Assembly (NCBI RefSeq): GCF_036389035.1
Contig: NZ_DASVQQ010000027.1
Origin: Jatrophihabitans sp.
Lineage (GTDB): Bacteria > Actinomycetota > Actinomycetes > Mycobacteriales > Jatrophihabitantaceae
Direction: 5' to 3' (one strand)
DNA: 64,000 nucleotides
Shown: piece by piece, positions 1,074 through 52,521 of the stretch
Position numbering within the stretch: position 1 is the first letter of the stretch
Layout: the number at the start of each line of letters is the position of its first letter
Program-made: the position numbers and the translations under genes
Notes under the pieces: generated by a model
What the model was told of the DNA's origin: nothing
What the model saw: the letters and a program-made list of their open reading frames with translations, nothing else
Databases searched by the model: none

Positions 1074-2219
1074 ATGACGACACTCCTCACGCCCACCAGC
1101 GGGTCACCCTCCGAACGCTTCACCTCCCGCGATCCCGATGACTTCGCCGTGCCCAACGGCCGCGAGGAGGAGTGGCGGTTCAGCCCGCTGCGCAAGCTGC
1201 GCCCGCTGTTCCAGCCGTTCACGTCACAGGACTCGTTCCGCTTCGAGACCGAGCTGCCGGCGGGCGTCACCGTCCAGGTGGTCGGCCGCGATCACGAGCT
1301 GGTCGGCACGGCGCTGACCCCCGCCGACCGGGTCAGCGCGCTGGCCGCGGCCAACGTCGGGCAGGTGGTGCTGGTCACCATCCCCGCCGAGACGCGGCTG
1401 TCCGAGCCGGTGACGCTGCGCTCGATCGGCAAGCCCGGCCTCAACTACGGCCACTTCGTCATCGACGCCCGCGCCTACAGCTCGGCCACCGTGGTGATGG
1501 ACCACCTCGGTGAGGCGACCGTGGCCGCCAACGTCGAGGTGCTGGTGGGCGACGGCGCGGACCTCAGCCTGATCAGCGTCCAGGACTGGGACGCCGAGGC
1601 CATCCACGTCGCCGCGCACGCCGCCCGGCTGAGCAGGGACGCCCGCTACACCCACATCGCGGTCAACCTCGGCGGCGCCGTGGTGCGGCTGAACCCGACG
1701 GTGAACTTCGCCGGGCCGGGCGCGGCAGCCGAGCTGTACGGCCTGTCCTTCGCCGGCCAGGGCCAACACCACGAGTCGCGGCTCTACGTCGACCACTCGG
1801 TGCCCCAGTGCAGCTCGCACGTGGTCTACAAGTCGGTGCTTGACGGCGACACCTCGCGCACGGTGTGGATCGGCGACGTCCGGATCAGGCCGGCGGCGGT
1901 GGCCACCACGACCTACGAGCTCAACCGCAACCTGCTGCTGACCGACGGGGCCCGCGCCGACTCGGTGCCCAACCTCGAGATCGAGACCGGTGAGATCGCC
2001 GGCGCCGGCCACGCCAGCGCCACCGGCCGCTTCGATGACCTGCAGCTGTTCTACCTGCAGTCGCGGGGGATTCCCGAGGACGAGGCCCGCCGGCTGGTGG
2101 TGCGCGGCTTCTTCGCCGACGTGATCGACCACATCAAGGTGCCGGCCCTGCACGACCGGCTGATGGCCAGCATCGACGTCCGCCTCGGCGGCACGCCCGC
2201 GGGCTTGGAGGAGAGCTGA
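1074..2219 (+). CDS. sufD: Fe-S cluster assembly protein SufD
   Basis: ATG at 1074. [42 protein letters not shown] motifs; follows sufB. Confidence 0.95.
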
Positions 2220-2527
2220 TGGCGACCAGGCTGTGCGCGCTGGCCGAGCTGAGTCCGGGCGTCCCGCTGCGGGTCGAGCTGGACGACCTGGAGGTCGCGG
2301 TCGTCCGGGTGGGCGATGAGGTGTTCGCCATCGAGGACGTCTGCTCGCACGCCGACTTTCCGCTCTCTGACGGCGAGGTCGAGGACTGCACCCTGGAGTG
2401 CGCGCTGCACAGCTCGCGCTTCGACCTGCGCACCGGCAAGCCGACCGGACCGCCGGCCACCCGGCCGGTGCCGGTCTTCGAGACCACGGTGGTCGACGGC
2501 GACGTCTACGCCGAGCTGGACAAGTGA
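2219..2527 (+). CDS. Rieske 2Fe-2S ferredoxin
   Basis: CxH (CSH) and CxxH (CALH) ligands; start overlaps the sufD stop (TGATG). Confidence 0.93.
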   Translation: MATRLCALAELSPGVPLRVELDDLEVAVVRVGDEVFAIEDVCSHADFPLSDGEVEDCTLECALHSSRFDLRTGKPTGPPATRPVPVFETTVVDGDVYAELDK

Positions 2528-2537
2528 CCCGGCCCGC

Positions 2538-2585
2538 GGCGGCTCCGGCTGCCCAAGCTCCCGTGGCGGCTCCTGCTGCCCGAGC
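2538..2585. repeat. Imperfect 21-bp direct repeat (period 27) between ferredoxin and sufC
   Basis: GGCGGCTCCGGCTGCCCAAGC at 2538 and GGCGGCTCCTGCTGCCCGAGC at 2565. Confidence 0.7.
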
Positions 2586-2611
2586 ACACGTGAAAGAGGA
2601 GAACTGAGAAG

Positions 2612-3367
2612 ATGTCCATGCTTGAGATCCGCGACCTGCACGTCGGCGTGGACGGCACCCCCATCCTCAAGGGCGTCAACCTGACGGTCGAGTCCGGCCA
2701 GACGCACGCCATCATGGGGCCCAACGGCTCCGGCAAGTCCACCCTGGCCTACTCGATCGCCGGCCACCCGAAGTACACGGTCACTTCGGGCCAGGTGCTG
2801 CTCGACGGCCAGGACGTGCTGGCGATGGCCGTCGACGAGCGCGCCCGGGCAGGCCTGTTCCTGGCCATGCAGTACCCGGTCGAGGTCCCCGGGGTGTCGG
2901 TGTCGAACTTCCTGCGCACCGCCGCCACCGCGATCCGTGGCGAGGCCCCCAAGCTGCGTCACTGGGTCAAAGAGGTCAACGCCGCCATGAGCGAGCTGGA
3001 GATGGACAAGGCCTTCGCAGAGCGCAACGTCAACGAGGGCTTCTCCGGCGGTGAGAAGAAGCGCCACGAGATCCTGCAGATGTCGCTGCTCAAGCCCAAG
3101 ATCGCCATCCTGGACGAGACCGACTCCGGCCTGGACGTCGACGCGCTGCGGACGGTCAGCGAGGGCGTCAACCGGGTCCGCGAGACCGGCATCGGCACCC
3201 TGCTGATCACCCACTACACCCGGATCCTGCGCTACATCAAGCCCGATTTCGTGCACGTCTTCTTCGACGGCCGGATCGTGGACTCCGGTGGCGCCGAGCT
3301 TGCCGACGAGCTCGAGGCGCACGGCTACGCCCGCTACGGCGTGAACGAGCCGGCGGCCGTGCAGTAA
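2612..3367 (+). CDS. sufC: Fe-S cluster assembly ATPase SufC
   Basis: Walker A GPNGSGKST, signature FSGGEKKR, Walker B LDETDSGLD; RBS GAGGAG upstream. Confidence 0.97.
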   Translation: MSMLEIRDLHVGVDGTPILKGVNLTVESGQTHAIMGPNGSGKSTLAYSIAGHPKYTVTSGQVLLDGQDVLAMAVDERARAGLFLAMQYPVEVPGVSVSNFLRTAATAIRGEAPKLRHWVKEVNAAMSELEMDKAFAERNVNEGFSGGEKKRHEILQMSLLKPKIAILDETDSGLDVDALRTVSEGVNRVRETGIGTLLITHYTRILRYIKPDFVHVFFDGRIVDSGGAELADELEAHGYARYGVNEPAAVQ

Positions 3368-8363: not shown

Positions 8364-9746
8364 GTGCAGCCTGACGCGGAAACGCCCGACCCCAGTTTCC
8401 GGGGCGCCTTGCGGGTGCGGGAGTACCGGCTGCTGTGGCTGGCGGCGGCGCAGTCCAGCACCGGTGATCAGCTGGCCCGGATCGCCATCGTGCTGCTCGT
8501 CTACGCGCGCTCCGGCTCGGCAGTGATCAGCGCGACCACCTACGCGCTGACGTTCCTGCCGTCGCTGCTGGGGGGAGTCTTCCTGTCCGGGCTGGCTGAT
8601 CGGTATCCGCGGCGGACGGTGATGGTGACGTGTGACCTGATCCGGTTGCTGCTGCTCCTGGTGCTGGCATCGGCCAACCTGAGCACGCTGGTCATCGATG
8701 TGGTCCTCGTCCTTCTCGTGCTGGCGGGAGCGCCGTTCTCGGCGGCGTCGGTGGCGGTGCTGCCCGAAGTGCTGCCTCCCAAGCATTACGTCGCGGGCGT
8801 CTCGCTGAATGTGGTCACCGGGCAGTTGGCGCAGCTCGTTGCCTTCGGCGCCGGCGGGCTGTGCGTCGCCTTCCTCGGAGTGCGGACGACGCTGCTAATC
8901 GATGCCGTCACCTTCGGTGTCTCGGCCGCTCTCATTCGTTACGGCATGGCCAACCGGGCCGCGCCGGACGCCTCGGCGGCCGGCGACGAAACCGTGGGTA
9001 AGTCCTACCTCGGCAGGCTCAGGGGCGGCCTGCGGGTGATCTATCGTGACCCGCTGCTGCGCTACCTGGTGCTCTTCGCGTGGATGCCGGTGTTCTACAT
9101 CGCACCGGAGGCGATCGCCCCCGCTTACGCACGCTCGCTCGGCGGCGGCGCCACCGCGACCGGGCTGATGATGGCGGCGATGCCGGCCGGCACCGCGATC
9201 GGGGCCTGGGCGTTCGGACGGCGCGGTTCGGATGCGGCTCGAGCCCGGGCGGTGCCCTACCTGGCTGCCGCTGCCAGCGCGATGCTGATCGTCAGCTGGA
9301 TGTCGCCGACGCTGCCGCTGTCGTTCGCGCTATGGCTGCTGTGCGGGGTGTTCAGCGCGTATCAGGTCTCGGTCGTGACTCGCTTCGTCCGCCGCACGCC
9401 CCTTCACCTGCGTGGTCAAGCGGTCGGGCTGGCCAGCGCCGGCCTGATCGCGATCCAGGGCGTCGGTTCGGTGGCCGCGGGAGTGCTGGCGACACTCTGG
9501 TCGCCGTCCGCCGCTGTCGGTATCGCAGGCATCGCCGGCGTGCTGTGTGTCGCGGCACTTCTGGCGCCGCTGCGCCGGGCCGAAAGGCTTGTTGCCCAGG
9601 AACAGCCCGACCAGGGCAACCCAGGCCAGGGCCACCCGGGCCAGGGCCACCCGGGTCAGGGCCACCCGGGCCAGGGCCAGCCCGCCCAGGGCCACCCGGG
9701 CCAGGGCCAGCCAGGCCCGATCGCGGCACAGGAGGCGACCGGCTGA
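8364..9746 (+). CDS. MFS transporter (DHA3/H+ antiporter-like) with C-terminal (QGHPG)n tail
   Basis: About 12 hydrophobic segments; motif A-like GLADRYPRR. Confidence 0.88.
   Translation: MQPDAETPDPSFRGALRVREYRLLWLAAAQSSTGDQLARIAIVLLVYARSGSAVISATTYALTFLPSLLGGVFLSGLADRYPRRTVMVTCDLIRLLLLLVLASANLSTLVIDVVLVLLVLAGAPFSAASVAVLPEVLPPKHYVAGVSLNVVTGQLAQLVAFGAGGLCVAFLGVRTTLLIDAVTFGVSAALIRYGMANRAAPDASAAGDETVGKSYLGRLRGGLRVIYRDPLLRYLVLFAWMPVFYIAPEAIAPAYARSLGGGATATGLMMAAMPAGTAIGAWAFGRRGSDAARARAVPYLAAAASAMLIVSWMSPTLPLSFALWLLCGVFSAYQVSVVTRFVRRTPLHLRGQAVGLASAGLIAIQGVGSVAAGVLATLWSPSAAVGIAGIAGVLCVAALLAPLRRAERLVAQEQPDQGNPGQGHPGQGHPGQGHPGQGQPAQGHPGQGQPGPIAAQEATG
9611..9715 (+). repeat. 15-bp tandem repeat x7 encoding QG(H/N/Q)P(G/A)
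   Basis: CCAGGGCCACCCGGG-type units start at 9611, 9626, 9641, 9656, 9671, 9686 and 9701. Confidence 0.95.
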
Positions 9747-9835
9747 TGCGGTAATCTGGGTGGTGTGAGCACCGTTCCGCGCTGAGCCCGGCCTGTTCAT
9801 CTGCCCATCAGCCATGTACCGGAAAGTGCCTTCAC

Positions 9836-11440
9836 ATGATCACCGCGACCGATCTCGAACTGCGCGCGGGCGCGCGGCTGCTGCTGCAGCCCACCACGCT
9901 GCGCGTCCAGGCCGGCGACCGGATCGGCCTGGTGGGCCGCAACGGGGCGGGCAAGACCACCAGCCTCAAGGTTCTGGCCGCCGAGACCCTGCCGCACGGC
10001 GGCCAGATCAGCAGCAACGCCCCCGTCGGCTACCTGCCCCAGGACCCCCGCACCGGCGATCTGGAGCAGACCGCGGGTGATCGCGTCCTGTCCGCCCGCG
10101 GCCTGGACGAGATCCTGCACGAGCTGACCTCGGTCGGTCACCGGCTGGCCGACGAGCACGCCGACCAGGCGTTGGTGCGTCGCTACGGCCACCTCGAGGA
10201 GCGGTTCTCAGCGCTCGGCGGGTACGCCGCCGAGGCGGAGGCGGCCCGGATCTGCGCCCACCTGGGCCTGCCCGAGCGGGTGCTGGCCCAGCCGCTGGGG
10301 ACCCTGTCCGGCGGGCAGCGCCGGCGCATCGAGCTGGCCCGGATCCTGTTCGCCGACTCGGCCGGCGAGCCCACCACGCTGCTGCTGGACGAGCCCACCA
10401 ACCACCTCGACGCCGACTCGATCACCTGGCTGCGCGACTTCCTCAAGGGTCACCGCGGGGGGCTGATCGTGGTCAGCCACGACGTCGAACTGTTGGAGGC
10501 GGTGGTCAACAAGGTCTGGTACCTCGACGCCAACCGCAGCGCGGTCGATGTCTACAACGTCGGCTGGAAGGCCTACCTCAAGCAGCGCGAGGCCGACGAG
10601 CGCCGGCGGGTCCGCGAACGGGCCAACGCCGAGCGCAAGATCGACTCGCTGCGCGGCCAGGCCGACAAGATGCGGGCCAAGGCCACCAAGGCCAAGGCGG
10701 CCCAGCAGATGCTGCGCCGGGCCGACGCGCTCAACGCCGGGCTGGCCGAGGTGCGGGCCCAGGACAAGGTGGCCCGGCTGCGGTTCCCCGACCCGGCGCC
10801 GTGCGGGCGCACCCCGCTGACCGCCGAGGGCCTGTCCAAGTCCTACGGCTCGCTGGAGGTGTTCACCGGCGTCGGCCTGGCGATCGACCGTGGCACCCGG
10901 GTGGTGGTGCTCGGCCTGAACGGGGCGGGCAAGACCACGCTGCTGCGGCTGCTGGCCGGGGCCGAGAAGCCCGACACCGGCGAGGTGGCCCCCGGCCACG
11001 GCCTGCGGCTGGGCTACTACGCCCAGGAGCACGAGACGCTGGACACCGAGCGCACGGTGCTGGAGAACATGCGCAGCGCCGCCCCTGACCCCGCCGACCT
11101 GCAGCTGCGCAGCGTGCTGGGAGCGTTCCTGTTCTCCGGTGAGGACGTCGACAAGCCCGCCGGGGTGCTCTCCGGCGGTGAGAAGACCCGGCTGGCCCTG
11201 GCGATGCTGGTGACCAGCGCGGCCAACGTGCTGCTGCTGGACGAGCCCACCAACAACCTGGACCCGGCCAGCCGGGAGCAGGTGCTGGACGCGCTGCGCC
11301 ACTACGCCGGCGCCATCGTCCTGGTGACCCACGACGAGGGTGCGGTCGAAGCGCTCAATCCGGACAAGGTGATCTTGCTGCCGGACGGGGTCGAGGACTC
11401 CTGGAGCGCCGATCTGGCCGACCTGATCGCGTTGGCCTGA
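9836..11440 (+). CDS. ABC-F family ATPase (Rv1473-like)
   Basis: Two ABC cassettes (GRNGAGKT/LSGGQ; GLNGAGKT/LSGGEK), LLLDEPTN twice, no TM domain. Confidence 0.93.
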   Translation: MITATDLELRAGARLLLQPTTLRVQAGDRIGLVGRNGAGKTTSLKVLAAETLPHGGQISSNAPVGYLPQDPRTGDLEQTAGDRVLSARGLDEILHELTSVGHRLADEHADQALVRRYGHLEERFSALGGYAAEAEAARICAHLGLPERVLAQPLGTLSGGQRRRIELARILFADSAGEPTTLLLDEPTNHLDADSITWLRDFLKGHRGGLIVVSHDVELLEAVVNKVWYLDANRSAVDVYNVGWKAYLKQREADERRRVRERANAERKIDSLRGQADKMRAKATKAKAAQQMLRRADALNAGLAEVRAQDKVARLRFPDPAPCGRTPLTAEGLSKSYGSLEVFTGVGLAIDRGTRVVVLGLNGAGKTTLLRLLAGAEKPDTGEVAPGHGLRLGYYAQEHETLDTERTVLENMRSAAPDPADLQLRSVLGAFLFSGEDVDKPAGVLSGGEKTRLALAMLVTSAANVLLLDEPTNNLDPASREQVLDALRHYAGAIVLVTHDEGAVEALNPDKVILLPDGVEDSWSADLADLIALA

Positions 11441-44141: not shown

Positions 44142-44528
44142 TCAGCCGACCAGCGTCTCCAGCAGGTGCTGTAGTTGCCTCGCCGGGTCCCCGGTCACGC
44201 CGCCGTGGATCGGCCCCGGTTGGATGACGGTGCTGCGTGGAGCGGCCAGCCAACCGAACCGCTGGCCCAGGCTGATCCCGGCCCCGGCGACCGGATCGGC
44301 CTGACCGCAGCAGTGCGCCTCGATGGCCGCCAGCGCCGACCGGGTCGCCTCCAGGTCGAGCTCGGGCGCCAACGCCAGCAGCCGGGCCTCCTGCAGCCGG
44401 CTACCGGCGCACAGATAGTCGGCGCTCTGGCTGTAGAGCACCACCCCGACGTTGACGAACTCCTCCCGGTCCACCCGCGGCACGCAGCGCAGCACCACGT
44501 ACTGGAACCCGTGCCGGCTCATGGTCAT
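44142..44528 (-). CDS. DUF3037 family protein
   Basis: FQYVVLRCVPRVDREEFVNVGVVL, RFGWLAAPRSTVIQPGPIH. Confidence 0.9.
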   Translation of the reverse strand: MTMSRHGFQYVVLRCVPRVDREEFVNVGVVLYSQSADYLCAGSRLQEARLLALAPELDLEATRSALAAIEAHCCGQADPVAGAGISLGQRFGWLAAPRSTVIQPGPIHGGVTGDPARQLQHLLETLVG

Positions 44529-44614
44529 CGGCTCTTCGCGCAAGCGCTCATCGCTGCCACTCGCTCCGGTCCTCGCTCATGCCGCTCGCTGCGATCCTCG
44601 CTCATGCCGCTCAT
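44525..44614 (-). repeat. MIRU-like spacer encoding a 29-codon coupled mini-ORF
   Basis: Shares 23/24 nt core GCTCTTCGCGC(A/T)AGCGCTCATCGC with 37522 and 37605; ATGA overlaps at both ends; internal 25-bp duplication. Confidence 0.85.
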
Positions 44615-45375
44615 GCCGCGACCGCCCTCGGCAGCCAGTTGCGGTCGCCGGCCAGCCGGGCCAGCAGGTAGTCCAGGTAGCGCTGGCGCACCGCGGCGGG
44701 CTCGGCGTTCTCCGGCTCCAGCCACTCGTCCGGAACCTGGGCCAGCACCTCTTCGAGCAGCCGGCGGTCGACCAGCGGCGCCAGCGCCCGGTCGGCCTCG
44801 GCCACTCCGGCGACATGGGAGACCAGCGCGTGCTCCGATGCGTCGTAGGGCTGCCGGGCGAAGCGCTGCGGATCGGCGCCCGGCCGGGACCAGCCGTGGT
44901 GGAAGTACAGCGCGGCGCCGTGGTCGATCAACCATAGCCGGCGGTGCCAGATCAGCAGGTTCGGGTTGCGCCAGCTGCGGTCGACATTGGCGGTGAACGC
45001 GTCCAGCCACAGGATGCGGGCCGCCTCCGCCGGGTCGGCCGGATAGCCGGCGTCCCAGCCGAACGAGCCGGGCAAGAAGTCGACGGCCAGGTTCAGCCCG
45101 ACGCTGGCGTTGAGCAGGTCCTGCACCTCTTGATCCGCCTCGTAGCGGGCGATCACCGGGTCCAGCTCCAGGGCTCGCAGCTCGGGGACGCGCAGGTCCA
45201 GCCGGCGGGCGAGTTCGCCGACCACCACCTCGGCCACCAGCGCCTTCAAGCCCTGACCCGCGCCCCGGAACTTCACCACGTAGGTGCCCAGGTCATCGGC
45301 CTCGACGATGCCGGGCAACGAGCCGCCCTCGCGCAACGGGGTCACGTAACGGCTGGCCTGCACAGTGCCAATCAC
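44611..45375 (-). CDS. HipA-like Ser/Thr kinase
   Basis: Gly loop REGGSLP, YVVKF lysine, catalytic NVDR..NPN, IDHG. Confidence 0.85.
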   Translation of the reverse strand: MIGTVQASRYVTPLREGGSLPGIVEADDLGTYVVKFRGAGQGLKALVAEVVVGELARRLDLRVPELRALELDPVIARYEADQEVQDLLNASVGLNLAVDFLPGSFGWDAGYPADPAEAARILWLDAFTANVDRSWRNPNLLIWHRRLWLIDHGAALYFHHGWSRPGADPQRFARQPYDASEHALVSHVAGVAEADRALAPLVDRRLLEEVLAQVPDEWLEPENAEPAAVRQRYLDYLLARLAGDRNWLPRAVAA

Positions 45376-47156: not shown

Positions 47157-47181
47157 CGACGCGCCGCTAGCCACGGCCGGT

Positions 47182-47223
47182 CGGCCGAGCCTTGACACCG
47201 GTTCTCACATCAAGGCTCGGCCG
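47182..47223 (+). terminator. 14-bp stem inverted repeat after the amylase
   Basis: CGGCCGAGCCTTGA-N14-TCAAGGCTCGGCCG. Confidence 0.65.
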
Positions 47224-47290
47224 GCAAGGCTGCGACTCTGAGGTTATCCACAGTTCCGCCGCCTTCGAGGCGTCAAAACAACAGCTCGGG

Positions 47291-47305
47291 TAGAATAGGT
47301 ATATG
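47291..47305 (+). promoter_or_regulatory. -10 hexamer TAGAAT, probable leaderless start
   Basis: TAGAAT 47291-47296, ATG at 47303, no SD sequence. Confidence 0.55.
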
Positions 47306-48163
47306 GATTCCAGCTCCGGGCGCGGTGGCCAAGGCGGTGGGGTCGCCTTATGGCCGCTCGCCGGACGTGACCAGCTGCTGAATGTGTACCGGCCCGGCGC
47401 GCAGCCCAGCGAAGGCCCGCTGCGCACACTTCGCTCACATCATTTGCTCTCAGACGGCGTGCGCATCCCCTTCGTTGAGCACAACCGGTTGAGTGGCCAG
47501 ATGAGGATGTTCTGCTCGCTCAACCTCGACGCTGTTCGATGGGCCCGGCACGGTGAAACCGCCGCAGCCGCTGCTGCCGCCGCCGCTGCGGCTGAGATCG
47601 AGCAGGGCACTGATTTCGGAAGTCTGTGCAAGCTGTTGTCCACGCGTAGCCCGGCGGAGATCCGCCTTGTCGGGGCCGGCAGCGTCGGAGCAGCCGCAAT
47701 CGATGGCGAACTCGGCGCGCTACTTCGGCGCATCGCCGTCAAGACTGAGCGGTTACGAACGGAGGTGCACAACCGCTGGCAGACGTCATGGGAGCACACG
47801 ACCGTCGGGTGGGTCCTGAGACGTCAGGATGATTTCGTGTTGATGGCAACGAACGAGGGCTTTCGGACCCAGGTGCCGTTGCACTGGGCACTGAGGATTC
47901 ATCGCGCCGATGCCGGGCAGGCACTCGTGCTCATCATCGAAGACTTGGACCACGTCGCGATCCATAGCGTTTTTCCGGGCTTGTGGCTCAGCGACCCGGG
48001 GCTTGCCGAGCAGCCGGTGACCAGAGTTGAACGCCCAGGTTCGGTGGATGTGGTGTTCGGCGGTCCTCGTACACCGCGTGTCTCCATCTCCGACGCAGAC
48101 GCTGACCGTCTGGAGAAATCTGAGCCGTTGCGAGTGCTCGTGCCCGTGTCCGTATCTGAATGA
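47303..48163 (+). CDS. Hypothetical protein (candidate antitoxin/partner)
   Basis: 286-aa ORF with a promoter-like upstream, lower GC than its neighbours and ATGA coupling to the next gene; no family recognised. Confidence 0.65.
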   Translation: MDSSSGRGGQGGGVALWPLAGRDQLLNVYRPGAQPSEGPLRTLRSHHLLSDGVRIPFVEHNRLSGQMRMFCSLNLDAVRWARHGETAAAAAAAAAAAEIEQGTDFGSLCKLLSTRSPAEIRLVGAGSVGAAAIDGELGALLRRIAVKTERLRTEVHNRWQTSWEHTTVGWVLRRQDDFVLMATNEGFRTQVPLHWALRIHRADAGQALVLIIEDLDHVAIHSVFPGLWLSDPGLAEQPVTRVERPGSVDVVFGGPRTPRVSISDADADRLEKSEPLRVLVPVSVSE

Positions 48164-48678
48164 GCCCGCCGTGGCAGGTGCGAGCCGCATGTGCTGAAGA
48201 CGCGGAGCTGGTCAAGGCCTTTCGATGCGCTGATCCGCGAGCCGCGTACGAGCTGGAGGCCGAACGGTTCATCACCACAACGGTGTTGGCCTGGGGGCTC
48301 GATCCGTATGCCGCCAGCGGCGACCCCAGGCTGTTGCTGCTCTTCGACAAGGCAAGCGGTGCGCTGGTGGGCCTGGTGGCCCACGAGCAGTCCACTTTAG
48401 CTGCGAACGATGGTCGTGAATTCTTGGCCAGCAAAGTCGAGGTCGCCGCGGTGGCCTCGGCTTGGCAGGGCAAGCGATTCAGCGACGGCACCCGCGTCAG
48501 TGACGTCTTGATGTCTGCCTTGGTCGCCGATATCACTGCTCGGGTCCCTGGGCGCGACGCCCGCATGTGGGCGTACGTGCACACCGAGAACGTCCGATCC
48601 ATCGCGATGTGTCGACGTGCCGGAATGCTCAATGAGCTGGCTGGCGCCCCTGACGGCTACCTGCTGCTTTCCAGCTGA
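48160..48678 (+). CDS. GNAT-fold acetyltransferase resembling tRNA-acetylating toxins
   Basis: VKAFRCAD N-terminal motif, VAAVASAWQGKR acetyl-CoA loop, AYVHTENVRSIAMCRRAG. Confidence 0.7.
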   Translation: MSPPWQVRAACAEDAELVKAFRCADPRAAYELEAERFITTTVLAWGLDPYAASGDPRLLLLFDKASGALVGLVAHEQSTLAANDGREFLASKVEVAAVASAWQGKRFSDGTRVSDVLMSALVADITARVPGRDARMWAYVHTENVRSIAMCRRAGMLNELAGAPDGYLLLSS

Positions 48679-48717
48679 TTGGTCTCGTGATCCCAAACCT
48701 CACCGGCGATGCTGAGC

Positions 48718-49650
48718 TCAGCGCACCTCGTCGGGGGAGCGGGGCGGGTCGTCCTTGGCCAGCCGATGCTGGTCCTCGATCTCCTGACGTTCCTCGACCC
48801 GCTTCTTGATCCGGCCCAGCCCGGGCAACGAGCCGAGGATCTCGTTGAGTTCCTTGCTGGTGTCGAGCAGGTCGCGAAGGTCCGGCGCCACCGTGCCCAT
48901 GGTCTTCATGATCGGCAGGACGTCGTTCTCCACCGCCCGCACCAGCTCGGGCAGCGTGTCGATGAGTTGGATGGCGGCGTCGACCTCGGCCGGGCTGGTC
49001 GATTCGGCCAGCCGGTTCAACACTGGCTCCAGGCCGCGCAGCGACGGCTCGAACCGCTCCAGCAGTCCGTCGGCGCGGCCCACCAGCTCGCCGGCCCGCT
49101 CAACCAGCGGGTCGGTCTGACCCAGCGCCGCGCCGGTGCGTTCCATCAGGGGTTCGGTGCTGTCGAGCACCGCGCCGGTGCGTTGGATGAGGGGTTCGGT
49201 GCTGTTCAGCACCGCGGCGGTCCGTTCGATCAGGGGTTCGGTGCTGTCGAGCACCGCGCCGGTCCGCTGGATGAGGGGCTCGGTGCTGTCGATGACCGCG
49301 CCTGACCGCTCGATCAGGGGTTCGGTGCTGTCGAGCACCGCGGCGGTCCGTTTGATCAGCGGTTCGGTGCTGTCGATGACCGCGCTCGATCGCTCCACCA
49401 GGGCGCCGGTCCGCTCAATCAGCTGCTCGCTGCCAACCAGCACCCGATCAGCCCGCTGGACGATCGTGCGGGCCTGGCGCTGGGTTTCATCGACCTCGCT
49501 CATGACCACGTTCACCTTTGCCACCACGCCCTCGATCTGGCCGATCAGGGTGATGACCCTGGGCACCAGGGCGATGGCCTGCTCGATCGCCTCATAGCCG
49601 CCCTCGGCCAGCCGCAGCAGATCCCGCGGTCCAGGAACACCAAGCCGCAT
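48718..49650 (-). CDS. Helical repeat protein with 14-aa tandem repeats
   Basis: R(T/S)xAV(L/I)DSTEPL(I/M)x six times plus one degenerate unit. Confidence 0.8.
   Translation of the reverse strand: MRLGVPGPRDLLRLAEGGYEAIEQAIALVPRVITLIGQIEGVVAKVNVVMSEVDETQRQARTIVQRADRVLVGSEQLIERTGALVERSSAVIDSTEPLIKRTAAVLDSTEPLIERSGAVIDSTEPLIQRTGAVLDSTEPLIERTAAVLNSTEPLIQRTGAVLDSTEPLMERTGAALGQTDPLVERAGELVGRADGLLERFEPSLRGLEPVLNRLAESTSPAEVDAAIQLIDTLPELVRAVENDVLPIMKTMGTVAPDLRDLLDTSKELNEILGSLPGLGRIKKRVEERQEIEDQHRLAKDDPPRSPDEVR
49100..49400 (-). repeat. 42-bp tandem repeat, about 7 units
   Basis: GGTTCGGTGCTGT-type core recurring every 42 bp from 49151 to 49361. Confidence 0.92.
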
Positions 49651-49809: not shown

Positions 49810-50991
49810 GTGGTGCCCGTGCAGGATTCTCCGGTGCTGCTGGCCGTCGATGGCAATTCGCTGGTCCACCGCAGCTTCCACTCCCAGGCCGGCACCGGGC
49901 TGCGCGCAGCCGACGGCCGGCCGCTGTGGGCGATCCGGGGACTGCTGACCCAGTTGGTGGCGGCGGCCGAGCGGATCTGCCCCACCGCCATCCTGGTCGG
50001 CTTCGACGATCCGGTCGCCAGCGTGCGGCGCACCCGCTGGCCCCAGTACAAGGCCAGCCGCACCGAGAAGCTGCAGAACCTGGTCTCCCAACTGGACGGC
50101 GCTGCCGAGGTGCTGCGGCGCATGGGCGTGGCAGTAGTGGTGCCTGAGGGGCTGGAAGCCGACGACGTGCTGGCCTCGGCCGCCCGGCTCGCTCCGCAGG
50201 TGGGCGCCCGGACCGTCATCATGACCTCTGACCGGGACTCCTTCGCCCTGATCGACGAGCACACCCGGGTGCTGCGGATCATCAACGGCGGAGTGGACGC
50301 CTCACCGCTGCTGACCCCCCAGCTGCTGGCCGTGATGCTCGGCATCCGTCCCGAGCAGTACTGCGACTACGCGGCGTTGCGGGGCGACCCTTCGGACAAC
50401 CTGCCCGGGGTTCGCGGCATCGGCCCCAAGACGGCAGCCAGGCTGCTGACCACCCTGGGCACCGCCGCGGCGGTGTTCGACGACCTGGCCGCCGGTGGAG
50501 CCCGGGTGAGGGCGGCGGTGGGCAGCGCCGCTGCCAAGCGACTGGCCCAGCCCGAGGCGCGGACGGCCTGGGAACTGAATTGTCAGGTGATGCGGATGCA
50601 CTGCGATGTCGAACTGGGCCTGGATCTCAGCGACATCAGCGGCGGCCCCGGCATGCTGCCGTTGGACCCGGCCGCGGTCGGCGCCGCCTTCCGGGACCAC
50701 GAGCTGACCTGGACGACGCCGGCCGCACTGCAGTTCCTGGCTTACCAGAACCCGCCGGAGCGCCCCGTCGAGCAGGCCTGGTCCTCGGAGCGGACCGGCT
50801 GGTCCTCGGAGCCGCCCGACCTCAGCGGAGCCGAATCACCGCGACGTCCGGCCCCTTCCGGCGGCAGGACGGCCGGGGCGGCCCGGACGCCATCCGAGCA
50901 CGGCCGACCGGGTGGACGCCGGTTCGGAAAGCTGGCCAAGCACGCCAGCCAGCCGAAGGACGCGGCCGTCCAGTTGTCGCTGTTTGATTGA
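49810..50991 (+). CDS. Stand-alone 5'-3' exonuclease / flap endonuclease (FenA-like)
   Basis: VDGNSL, YKASR, EADDV, TSDRD, H3TH LRGDPSDNLPGVRGIGPKTA; no polymerase domain. Confidence 0.9.
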   Translation: MVPVQDSPVLLAVDGNSLVHRSFHSQAGTGLRAADGRPLWAIRGLLTQLVAAAERICPTAILVGFDDPVASVRRTRWPQYKASRTEKLQNLVSQLDGAAEVLRRMGVAVVVPEGLEADDVLASAARLAPQVGARTVIMTSDRDSFALIDEHTRVLRIINGGVDASPLLTPQLLAVMLGIRPEQYCDYAALRGDPSDNLPGVRGIGPKTAARLLTTLGTAAAVFDDLAAGGARVRAAVGSAAAKRLAQPEARTAWELNCQVMRMHCDVELGLDLSDISGGPGMLPLDPAAVGAAFRDHELTWTTPAALQFLAYQNPPERPVEQAWSSERTGWSSEPPDLSGAESPRRPAPSGGRTAGAARTPSEHGRPGGRRFGKLAKHASQPKDAAVQLSLFD

Positions 50992-52521
50992 GTCCCGCCG
51001 CTGGGCCGCCAGCTGCCTCTCGGCCGCGGCCCAGCGTTGGACGGCGGCCCAGTATTCGGTTGCAGCCTGCCGTTCGGCCGTACGGGAAGCGGAGCGCCGG
51101 CGACGGCGCAGCAGGAGCAGCAACACCAGCAGCGTCCCACCGGCGGCCACCGGAGCCAGCCGCTTGGCGATGGCCGGGCCGGCCGAGCCCAGCAGGTCGA
51201 TCGGCTCGACGTCAGCGACCGCCGGTCGGTGTGCGGGCGGCGAGGCCAGGGTGGGCCCCGGCGCCGGCTGAGCCGGCCTGCCGGTTGATGCCACATCGAT
51301 ATCGTTGAGCCGCTGAGCCGGCGGGGCGGCCTCGGCGGCGGCCGCCGGTTCGACGGCCTGCTCATCCGAGGCCGCGCCGGGCAGTGCCACCACCGTCTCA
51401 TCGACGGTGGGATCGGCGGCGGTGTCCGTCAGCGCGGCAGCGGGCTGAGCCAGCCCCGGGCCGGCGACGGCAGAGTCAGGCGCCACCGCCGGGGCGGTCC
51501 GCAGCTCGGCCAGGCCGGCTTCGACCACGCCCGGCTCGGCAAGCCCCGGCCCGCCGGCAGCCGGCCGGTCCGGAGCGGGCGAGCCGACGCCGGAGTCCAC
51601 CTCACCGGCTGACCGGGCGAGGTCCGGTCCGGAGGCCCCCAGCTCCGCGGTGTCGAGGTCCGGGGTGTCGAGGTCTGCGGTGCCCAGCTGCTCGGCACTC
51701 TCGAGATCGGCACTGGCCAGCCGCTCCACGATGTCAGGATCGGCGGCGTCGAGCTGGCTTGCGGGGTCCAATCCGGCGGCGCCAACCCCGCCAGCGCCGA
51801 TCCCGCCAGCGCCGATCCCGCCAGCACCAATCCCGCCAGCGCCGATCCCGGCGACGCCAACCGCGGCGCCAACCCCAGGGACGCCAACTTCCGCGATGCC
51901 GACCCGGTCAGCGCCAGCCCCGCCGGCACCGACCTCGCCGGCGCCGACCTCGCCAGCGCCGACCTCAGCGCCGACCTCGCCAGCGCCGGCGCCGACCTCG
52001 CCAGCGCCAGCCCCAGCGCCGACCCCGCCGGCGCCAACTCCGGTGCCTACCTCGGCTGCGTCCTGACTGCCGGCCTCGGACCCGGTCAGCTTGCCGGCCA
52101 GGCAGTCGGCGAACTGCCCGATCAGCTTGTTGCCGACGTCCACCATCACGCCCCGGCCGAACTGGGCGGGCTTGCCGGTGATGTTGAGGTCGGTGACGAC
52201 GTTGACCGCGGTCTCGCTGCCCTGCGAGGTCAGCGTCGCGGTGATGATGGCCTTGGCGGTGCCGTTGCCGCGAGCGTCCTTGCCCTGGGCGTCGATCACC
52301 GCCCGGTGCCCGACGGCGTCCTTCTCGACGAAGCTGGCCTTGCCCCGGTAGGTGAGACCGATCGGGCCGAGCCGCACCTTGACGGTGCCGGTGAAGTCGT
52401 CGCCGTCCACGGTCTCGATCGCCGCACCCGGCATGCACGGCGCTATTCGTTCGATGTCGAGCAGCACCTTCCAGGCCTGGTCGATCTCGGCCGGCACCGT
52501 GAAGTTGTGGGTGAGCTGCAT
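50836..52521 (-). CDS. coxG: CoxG-like SRPBCC protein with greatly expanded low-complexity linker and C-terminal TM anchor
   Basis: LLDIERIAPCMPGA, GPIGLTY, GKPAQFGRG, QFADCL; then Gly/Ala repeats, TM segment and RRRRR. Confidence 0.8.
   Translation of the reverse strand: MQLTHNFTVPAEIDQAWKVLLDIERIAPCMPGAAIETVDGDDFTGTVKVRLGPIGLTYRGKASFVEKDAVGHRAVIDAQGKDARGNGTAKAIITATLTSQGSETAVNVVTDLNITGKPAQFGRGVMVDVGNKLIGQFADCLAGKLTGSEAGSQDAAEVGTGVGAGGVGAGAGAGEVGAGAGEVGAEVGAGEVGAGEVGAGGAGADRVGIAEVGVPGVGAAVGVAGIGAGGIGAGGIGAGGIGAGGVGAAGLDPASQLDAADPDIVERLASADLESAEQLGTADLDTPDLDTAELGASGPDLARSAGEVDSGVGSPAPDRPAAGGPGLAEPGVVEAGLAELRTAPAVAPDSAVAGPGLAQPAAALTDTAADPTVDETVVALPGAASDEQAVEPAAAAEAAPPAQRLNDIDVASTGRPAQPAPGPTLASPPAHRPAVADVEPIDLLGSAGPAIAKRLAPVAAGGTLLVLLLLLRRRRRSASRTAERQAATEYWAAVQRWAAAERQLAAQRRDSIKQRQLDGRVLRLAGVLGQLSEPASTRSAVLGWRPGRPGRPAAGRGRTSR
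51775..52040 (-). repeat. 15-bp repeats encoding GAGGI and GAGEV in coxG
   Basis: GCCAGCGCCGATCCC-type and GCCGACCTCGCCAGC-type units in tandem. Confidence 0.85.

Follow-up and report, generated by a model that had tools for sequence, protein, structure and literature searches.

To our knowledge, all characterised GNAT (Gcn5-related N-acetyltransferase) toxins acetylate aminoacyl-tRNA using a conserved tyrosine. The known partners of GNAT toxins belong to the DUF1778 and DUF4065 families, and antitoxin swapping occurs among these toxins (PMC9177977). In the DUF1778 toxin–antitoxin (TA) systems (AtaRT, TacAT, KacAT, ItaRT, and GmvAT), a partner of the ribbon-helix-helix (RHH) type is encoded first and a GNAT of ~170 aa second, in a bicistronic unit. 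Pairs of an Xre-type helix-turn-helix (HTH) regulator and a GNAT were predicted by Makarova et al. in 2009, and their nature, TA or resistance, was uncertain (PMC2701414). Here, we describe a gene pair of the same general layout, found in a 64,000-nt stretch of DNA (the window) from Jatrophihabitans sp. (contig NZ_DASVQQ010000027.1). The window originates from a soil metagenome, and the sequencing runs containing its sequence are DNA runs only, with no RNA run.

The pair consists of gene 1 (47303..48163, + strand; ATG start, 286 aa), a candidate antitoxin and autorepressor of an unannotated family, and gene 2 (48160..48678, +; ATG start, 172 aa), a GNAT-fold acetyltransferase of non-canonical type and a candidate toxin. 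As in the DUF1778 systems, the partner comes first and a GNAT of ~170 aa second. The toxins of these systems are among the best structural matches of gene 2, and an N-terminal F-x-C-[GA]-D motif is common to both. Further points of likeness are a partner C-terminal region that is likely neutralising, a palindromic operator suggesting autoregulation, and a mobile, patchy distribution. From these and the following results, which derive from sequences and predicted structures, we consider it probable, with some reserve, that the locus represents an autoregulated, horizontally mobile TA-like module of type II with an architecture not described before, and that gene 1 represents a new antitoxin family.

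Gene pair, coupling, and distribution

The two open reading frames (ORFs) are joined by an ATGA stop/start overlap (48160..48163, +), from which translational coupling had been proposed in a preliminary description of the locus made from its sequence. The overlap is kept, as ATGA or GTGA, in 24/26 junctions from genome and contig loci and in 41/42 from metagenome loci (65/68 altogether). The GC content of the pair is 0.63–0.65, compared to about 0.68–0.72 in the flanks, and GC at third codon positions (GC3) is 0.72 for gene 1 and 0.76 for gene 2, compared to 0.88–0.96 in adjoining genes. The ORFs, both measures of composition, and the predicted fold of an upstream hairpin confirm that the pair is a self-contained unit of lower GC, lying between the hairpin and a convergent gene downstream.

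Selection on both genes was estimated using two close relatives, loci L005 and L006 (80% and 76% identical), as references. The dN/dS ratio of gene 1 was 0.14–0.26; each segment was below 0.4, and the minimum, 0.06–0.14, was observed over aa 14–134. For gene 2, dN/dS was 0.10–0.13. Values of 0.10–0.26 indicate that both genes encode real, constrained proteins, and the concern that gene 1 may not be translated is answered by the purifying selection acting on it.

A gene 1 homolog is located directly upstream of the gene 2 homolog in 22/22 evaluable distinct genome/contig loci (locus L030, which holds a gene 2 remnant only, is outside this set) and in 35/38 evaluable metagenome loci. Two of the three metagenome exceptions, L072 and L073, have a tail-only partner, and the third, L089, is a gene 2 fragment only. 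Co-occurrence of the homologs, which had been set beforehand as a test of the partnership, is thus observed in about 57/60 evaluable loci of Actinomycetota and Myxococcota. Co-evolution of the two genes was seen in the correlation of their distance matrices (Mantel r = 0.89, p ≤ 0.0002, 20 loci), and genes flanking the pair vary from locus to locus, with no Pfam family recurring among them.

Homologs of gene 2 are present in 19 of 185,579 GTDB species genomes, with a patchy distribution in two phyla. The hosts include Micromonospora, Actinoplanes, Dactylosporangium, Saccharothrix, Pseudonocardiaceae, and Streptosporangiaceae, and, among myxobacteria, Archangium and Myxococcaceae. No copy of the pair was found in a viral search that covered 2.9 million viral contigs and 50,697 phage records. 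A tblastn search of plasmids with gene 2 returned no match; nonetheless, divergent pairs are carried by Streptomyces linear plasmids (L090 and L091). With adjacent, co-directional, co-occurring, and coupled genes, and with mobility, patchiness, and a variable genomic context, the locus has several generic properties of type II TA systems.

Operator, body, and tail of gene 1

An alignment of upstream regions from 18 loci contains a palindrome as the sole conserved non-coding block, a feature absent from the preliminary description. The family palindrome has 9–10-bp arms (consensus CGAGRCGTYG-NNN-CRACGYCTCG), ends 16–21 nt before the gene 1 start codon, and is followed by a TANNNT hexamer. The window carries a degenerate copy at the orthologous position (47267..47287, +; GAGGCGTCAAAACAACAGCTC), with three mismatches to GAGRCGTYG-NNN-CRACGYCTC; this is the single match in the window and, taken alone, is not above chance (1.17 expected). 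Both Actinomycetota and Myxococcota have the palindrome; among metagenome loci, all 20 whose start could be placed carry it with three or fewer mismatches, and exact matches within the fetched loci are confined to the site upstream of the gene 1 start. A perfect family palindrome is found in L002 (GAGACGTTG-TTT-CAACGTCTC). A related perfect palindrome is located at an equal distance upstream of the distant relative P0105 (L032), which has a different tail, and upstream of the plasmid-borne relative in L090 there is a sequence resembling the operator.

The putative promoter in the window is a −10-like hexamer of the TANNNT type, TAGAAT (47291..47296, +), which was read from the sequence and ends 6 nt 5' of the ATG. 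Though a simple σ70 scan of the upstream region revealed no −35/−10 pair, a TANNNT hexamer ending exactly 6 nt before the start is present in 15/26 GNAT-clade loci (window included), and a spacing of 7–8 nt is seen in four more. Since this geometry recurs in most homologous loci, the leaderless promoter proposed earlier is supported, implying that the mRNA of gene 1 would be leaderless and start at 47303. A conserved palindrome that overlaps the promoter points to sequence-specific autoregulation, and an autoregulatory operator of this kind is a further generic property of type II TA systems that the locus appears to possess. Most simply, and most likely, the palindrome would be bound by the conserved N-terminal part of the gene 1 body, so that the protein would sit over its own promoter.

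No Pfam model matches gene 1 at E ≤ 1, and hence no RHH, DUF1778, DUF4065, VbhA, or Xre/HTH domain is recognisable in it; the lack of an RHH had been noticed earlier. Like the Xre-HTH–GNAT pairs, the locus is a two-gene combination of a regulator and a chromosomal GNAT; unlike them, its regulator lacks an Xre/HTH match and has a larger, three-part architecture. Searches of NCBIfam, PADLOC (E ≤ 1), and PHROGs yielded zero matches for either gene, and PDB sequence searches with gene 1 and its family profile returned nothing meaningful. A word-based homolog search found two relatives of gene 1 only, an undercount that was corrected by context look-ups and a hidden Markov model search. In an exhaustive profile search, the family comprised 349 clusters (defined at 50% identity) at E ≤ 1e-3, many of which match the body alone and not the tail. 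Public gene calls shorten gene 1 homologs at internal starts (5256–5735 in L090, NZ_CP108317.1; 5378–6004 in L002). Together with a GNAT that was left uncalled in L032, the truncated calls indicate that annotation of the family is systematically wrong, so that the pairing goes unseen in databases.

The AlphaFold2 model of gene 1 (predicted local distance difference test, pLDDT, 73.6) consists of an N-terminal unit, a helical region, a long helix, a small β-barrel, and the tail. The N-terminal domain (aa 14–84; 47342..47554, +), for which alignments and the secondary structure of the model indicate a β-β-α-α-β-β order, is the best-conserved part of the superfamily (RPG...RTLR...G.S.G...YS.LN.DAARLARHG); a search of the PDB with its profile found no solved relative. 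The long helix (aa 136–158) precedes the β-barrel (aa 164–228; 47792..47986, +, from the secondary structure of the model), which corresponds to the β-rich C-terminal half recognised in the preliminary description. Foldseek comparison of the gene 1 model with the PDB and BFVD revealed no significant neighbour; a weak likeness of the barrel to barrels of the eIF5A-N, IF1, and PAN-N types was seen at E ≥ 0.016. The helical and β-barrel middle part may function in oligomerisation or signal sensing.

Several observations concern the body itself and its distant relatives. A run of 13 alanines (47558–47596, aa 86–98), located in a helix, is specific for the window lineage, and relatives have AAxRxAxAAAxLE at this place; a depth spike at 47540–47623 is explained by this run, which draws cross-mapping contigs from many metagenomes. 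P0112 (517 aa) and P0137 (623 aa) carry the gene 1 body as an N-terminal fusion to a DnaG-type CHC2 zinc ribbon and Toprim primase, with matches to PHROG “DNA primase” entries. These fusions suggest that the body may be a DNA-targeting module reused by replication proteins of mobile elements. Another distant relative, P0100 (L033–L035), is located 132 nt upstream of a complete higB–higA pair, with insertion sequence (IS; rve) transposases in the flanks (5001–6576 in L033).

The C-terminal tail of gene 1 (aa 233–286; 47999..48160, +) contains a conserved motif, FSPFGR..[ST]..D...L.G.P.PLRVLVPV.IE, whose window version is VFGGPR...ISDADADRLEKSEPLRVLVPVSVSE, and is a candidate GNAT-binding and neutralising segment. 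Alone, it is predicted to be disordered (pLDDT <50 at 233–263 and 273–286), with a helix at 264–271. A weak likeness to the neutralising segment of DUF1778, which had been suggested for this tail, was rejected after profile comparison (hhalign probability 0.4%, 7 columns). A match of the tail alignment (A7, 34 sequences; window aa 251–286) to the L2–α3 part of the CENP-S histone fold (FARHAKRSTITSEDVKLL; PDB, E 0.004) was judged to be a chance strand–helix match.

The tail and the body are also found separately. In L072 and L073, proteins of 80–124 aa combine a basic K/A/P-rich stretch with the tail motif (FTPFGR...ISESDADLLREQPESLRILVPA), have no body, and are ATGA-coupled to a GNAT of the gene 2 family. 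Their tail is related to that of gene 1 with an hhalign probability of 97.9% (E 4e-13), which supports the view that the tail can behave as an autonomous GNAT-partner module. Conversely, P0113 has a gene 1-type body in which the tail is replaced by a VbhA domain (Pfam, E 4.7e-8) that contains the inhibitory motif S-x-x-x-E-G, and the adjoining gene encodes a Fic protein with HPFRDGNGR. The VbhA domain was detected in 2/79 distant gene 1 relatives scanned, P0113 included. The arrangement resembles the VbhA/FicA–Fic (FicTA) systems, in which the same inhibitory motif is found next to a Fic gene with HPFx[D/E]GNGR; it differs from them in that the VbhA of P0113 is appended to a ~220-aa body and is not a small stand-alone protein. 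The gene 1 of the window differs from FicTA further, as it has no VbhA and its partner is a GNAT, not Fic.

Divergent body/tail variants are paired with correspondingly divergent GNATs, as seen in L032 and in the Streptomyces linear plasmids L090 and L091. P0105 was considered as a “solo” relative and rejected, since the GNAT missed by the gene caller lies downstream (L032). In L031, a DndB-like gene (1948–3264; weak Pfam match) lies beside the Fic gene found next to the VbhA-tailed relative, and this neighbourhood may be a small defence island.

As far as sequences can speak to function, the modularity of body and tail is the main functional evidence for a TA-like reading of the locus. Most likely, the disordered tail of gene 1 would dock onto the gene 2 protein and hold the GNAT inactive. 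An earlier suggestion that a larger sensor domain carries the antitoxin tail was, therefore, borne out in part: the tail as a GNAT-partner module is supported, and the sensor role is not, an autorepressor being likelier given that the palindrome overlaps the promoter. DUF4065 (Panacea)–GNAT pairs offer a precedent for GNAT toxins swapping antitoxin families (PMC9177977). They also offer one for an antitoxin scaffold found beside several toxin classes, as the gene 1 body family adjoins GNAT, Fic, and higBA. Unlike Panacea, gene 1 has no DUF4065 (Pfam, E ≤ 1), its conserved part goes together with a conserved operator, and specificity appears to reside in an exchangeable C-terminal tail (VbhA versus PLRVLVPV).

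Fold and active site of gene 2

Gene 2 matches Pfam Acetyltransf_3 below the cutoff (E = 0.033), and 9/18 relatives are similarly sub-threshold. The AlphaFold model of gene 2, which was built with 18 homologs, has a pLDDT of 90.6 and the order β1-α1-α2-β2-β3-β4-α3-β5-α4-β6-β7. When this model was compared to the PDB with Foldseek, 372 matches were obtained at E ≤ 1e-3, and 50/50 matches listed are GNAT-fold acetyltransferases. The GNAT core recognised in the preliminary description, weak by sequence, is thus confirmed at the level of structure prediction. The best TM-score and root-mean-square deviation among the matches listed were observed for ItaT (7BYY; PMC7367177), AtaT, and GmvT, with TMq of 0.62–0.67. 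Within the family alignment of gene 2, mean column identity is 67%.

The F21-R-C23-A-D25 motif of gene 2 (48220..48234, +) is located in the α1–α2 loop, with F21 and C23 nearly invariant in the family. Its aligned counterparts in deposited TacT-like/AtaT toxins are FDCGD, FCCSD, and FDCGE. The resemblance of AFRCAD to the toxin F-x-C-G motif, noticed in the preliminary description, thus holds, as a family-conserved F-x-C-A-D opposite F-D-C-G-D/E of TacT and AtaT. The predicted acetyl-CoA loop, WQGxxFxxGxRxS, is 3–4 residues longer than the usual Q/RxxGxG/A and contains an invariant Arg where Gly or Ala is usual. H75, E94, H141, and Y167 are invariant in the 18-member clade. In our reading, gene 2, translationally coupled to gene 1, encodes a GNAT-fold acyltransferase structurally closest to tRNA-acetylating toxins, with a putatively rewired active site.

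Mobility, decay, and competing explanations

The pair belongs to a variable cassette (47158..48716) that the window contains and a contig from a related organism lacks. This 418-nt contig, from run X3 of another soil metagenome, has flanks that are ~89% identical and joins 47157 to 48717, skipping exactly the hairpin, the promoter, and both genes (1.56 kb). The distance between the flanking stop codons is at most ~200 nt in the organism with the empty site versus 1,559 nt here. The empty site, the dip in GC3, the occurrence in 19/185,579 species of two phyla, and the plasmid copies lead us to the conclusion that the cassette is horizontally mobile. The hairpin (47179..47226, +; ΔG −45.6 kcal/mol, z −3.27) forms a perfect stem of 16 bp and lacks a T-run. 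It lies just 3' of the α-amylase stop codon (47156), inside the variable segment, and probably acts as a terminator or insulator in front of the module.

Some loci adjoin Wadjet (JetC), CBASS, SoFic, an integrase, IS elements, or a TOTE-type primase–helicase (PrimPol). The latter is encoded in L013 (Micromonospora sp. MP36; 8540–10939) as an 800-aa protein with a TOTE conflict system archaeo-eukaryotic primase (AEP) and a ResIII/DEAD helicase; its reading frame begins 4 nt ahead of the stop codon of gene 2, resulting in a three-gene operon. The proximity to defence islands that had been anticipated is, therefore, seen for some loci, near Wadjet, CBASS, and SoFic, and not for many others. Similarly, the proposal of a previously uncharacterised GNAT TA/defence architecture holds insofar as the locus is a mobile, toxin-like module with an uncharacterised partner, and fails insofar as no known defence family is matched.

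Clear damage to gene 2 was seen in L027, where an N-terminal deletion is combined with a frameshift, in L028, which has a frameshift, and in L030, where a C-terminal remnant is left. Both L027 and L028 retain an undamaged gene 1. An apparently broken gene 1 in L026 was discounted as a compensated double frameshift in a long-read metagenome-assembled genome, probably an assembly error. The bias of decay towards gene 2 runs in the direction that would be anticipated for the harmful member of the pair.

Other genes surround the module in the window. The convergent gene downstream of gene 2 (48718–49650, −) encodes 310 aa with about 10 tandem repeats of ~14 aa that are STEPLIERTGAVLD-like, and its match to DUF948 is weak and sub-threshold. 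About 2 kb from the module (44142–45375, −), a HipA-like kinase gene (Pfam HipA_2, 44611–45375) is located directly upstream of a gene for a DUF3037 protein (44142–44543), and the two may form another TA-like or conflict pair. A 561-aa protein encoded at 50836–52521 (−) has an N-terminal CoxG domain, followed by ~250 aa of G/A/V/E low-complexity repeats (GAGEVGAG...) and a hydrophobic, Arg-rich C-terminal segment; local GC is up to 0.77.

A number of results weigh against the reading of the pair as a TA-like module. In the Foldseek comparison, the toxins scored E-values of 2e-7 to 1e-5, hardly distinguishable from those of the housekeeping GNATs RimJ and SpeG and also of Naa60. Searches of the PDB by phmmer and hmmsearch with gene 2 and its family gave no GNAT match at E ≤ 10, and hhalign of the gene 2 family with a toxin profile (built from the deposited TacT-family, 7F37, and AtaT sequences) was not significant (probability 1.5%, E 0.035); the alignment is collinear over 127 columns and places WQG opposite QGQG and C151 opposite the general-acid Tyr. 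That Tyr (Y150) is the essential general acid of ItaT (PMC7367177), and deposited AtaT structures among the matches listed carry Y144F at this position. In the gene 2 family, the position is occupied by Cys in 12/18 members (C151 in the window) and by Leu in 6/18, and it is Leu in the divergent GNATs of L032 and L090. The median isoelectric point (pI), a proxy only for a basic tRNA-binding surface, is 6.7 in the family (5.4 in the window, net charge ~−1) versus 9.4 (net charge +7) for three solved toxins. The partner, at 250–290 aa, is without RHH or DUF1778, and its tail is unrelated to the DUF1778 C-terminus. The Fic gene beside P0113 is convergent, not co-directional, which also sets it apart from FicTA. 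PADLOC 2.0 defence models match neither protein at E ≤ 1 and match only some neighbours, flanking genes are mostly ordinary metabolic or regulatory ones, and the decay pattern comprises three or four cases only.

Because there is no catalytic Tyr, the charge is acidic to neutral, and a significant sequence relationship to the toxins is lacking, acetylation of aminoacyl-tRNA by gene 2 is doubtful. Gene 2 thus differs from the DUF1778-associated toxins in its Cys or Leu in place of Tyr, its longer predicted acetyl-CoA loop, its non-basic charge, and its non-significant profile similarity. The toxic target of gene 2, if there is one, is unlikely to be aminoacyl-tRNA bound as it is by AtaT, a view that follows from the seemingly rewired active site and the non-basic surface. 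The original characterisation of gene 2 as a toxin-like GNAT with a motif reminiscent of AtaT/TacT is therefore to be divided: the fold and the motif stand, and membership in the toxin clade and an AtaT-like tRNA mechanism are not supported.

The same features of the GNAT, the missing toxin-type Tyr and basic surface, leave room for the main competing explanation, namely that the locus is a non-toxic acetyltransferase cassette. Gene 1 would then be a repressor with a ligand-sensing barrel, and the GNAT would detoxify or modify a small molecule (an antibiotic or xenobiotic), the cassette spreading among soil antibiotic producers. An operator that overlaps the promoter, hosts that are soil Actinomycetota and Myxococcota, and mostly metabolic or regulatory flanking genes all agree with this, as do aminoglycoside and nourseothricin acetyltransferases among the structural matches of gene 2 that were listed. 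For regulator–GNAT pairs, antibiotic resistance was the explanation first favoured by Makarova et al. (PMC2701414); however, pairs doubted by these authors proved to be genuine TA systems (PMC9177977). Such a cassette leaves unexplained why a conserved disordered tail is kept with the GNAT after loss of the body (L072 and L073), why a relative has a VbhA antitoxin tail next to a Fic toxin, and why the 4-nt coupling is nearly universal; moreover, decay hits gene 2, not the regulator. We consider this explanation unlikely, and the two that follow less likely still.

The primase fusions of P0112 and P0137, the TOTE-type AEP primase–helicase coupled directly after gene 2 in L013, and the copies on Streptomyces linear plasmids could be accommodated by a replication or maintenance module of a mobile element, with gene 1 binding an origin or operator and the GNAT acting as an accessory modifier. 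This is improbable: in the window and at most other loci, the pair has unrelated chromosomal genes on either side, and genes for replication or integration are absent from its surroundings, the empty-site polymorphism covers the 1.56-kb pair only, and neither the 2.9 million viral contigs nor the 50,697 phage records contain a copy.

Least probable is a reversed polarity resembling type VII enzyme–antitoxins, in which a harmful gene 1 would be neutralised through acetylation, e.g., of its tail, by the GNAT; the acidic, not tRNA-toxin-like character of the GNAT, its invariant H/E/Y residues, which suggest an active enzyme, the presence of the protein N-terminal acetyltransferases Naa60 and Ard1 among the structural matches listed, and the suitability of the conserved tail as a substrate peptide would fit it, but gene 1 has no toxic domain recognisable with domain libraries or Foldseek, its relatives carry a genuine antitoxin domain (VbhA), it outlasts the decayed gene 2 in L027 and L028, contrary to what is expected of a toxin, and the partner-first, enzyme-second order is the classical antitoxin–toxin order.

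Returning to the TA-like module, which we prefer, gene 2 would be the toxic partner, neutralised by the tail of gene 1, and the body of gene 1 would provide DNA binding. A more far-reaching version is offered tentatively. In it, gene 1 would be a promiscuous antitoxin/regulator scaffold with exchangeable neutralisation modules (the PLRVLVPV tail for the GNAT clade, VbhA for Fic, and possibly others), the body perhaps sensing through its β-barrel; gene 2 would be a Tyr-less GNAT toxin with a non-tRNA target, and the pair would serve abortive infection or addiction in Actinomycetota and Myxococcota.

The gene 1 family, which is neither DUF1778 nor DUF4065, is an unannotated partner family whose body and tail are found separately in nature. 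Its conserved operator provides a testable DNA–protein pair, and the active-site and charge features of the GNAT clade argue for a different target. With a non-toxic gene 2, the locus would be a new repressor–acetyltransferase cassette that spreads among antibiotic producers. A toxic gene 2 would widen the biochemical range of GNAT toxins and add a new exchangeable antitoxin scaffold in myxobacteria and Streptomyces-type genomes, for which little of the TA and defence biology has been mapped.

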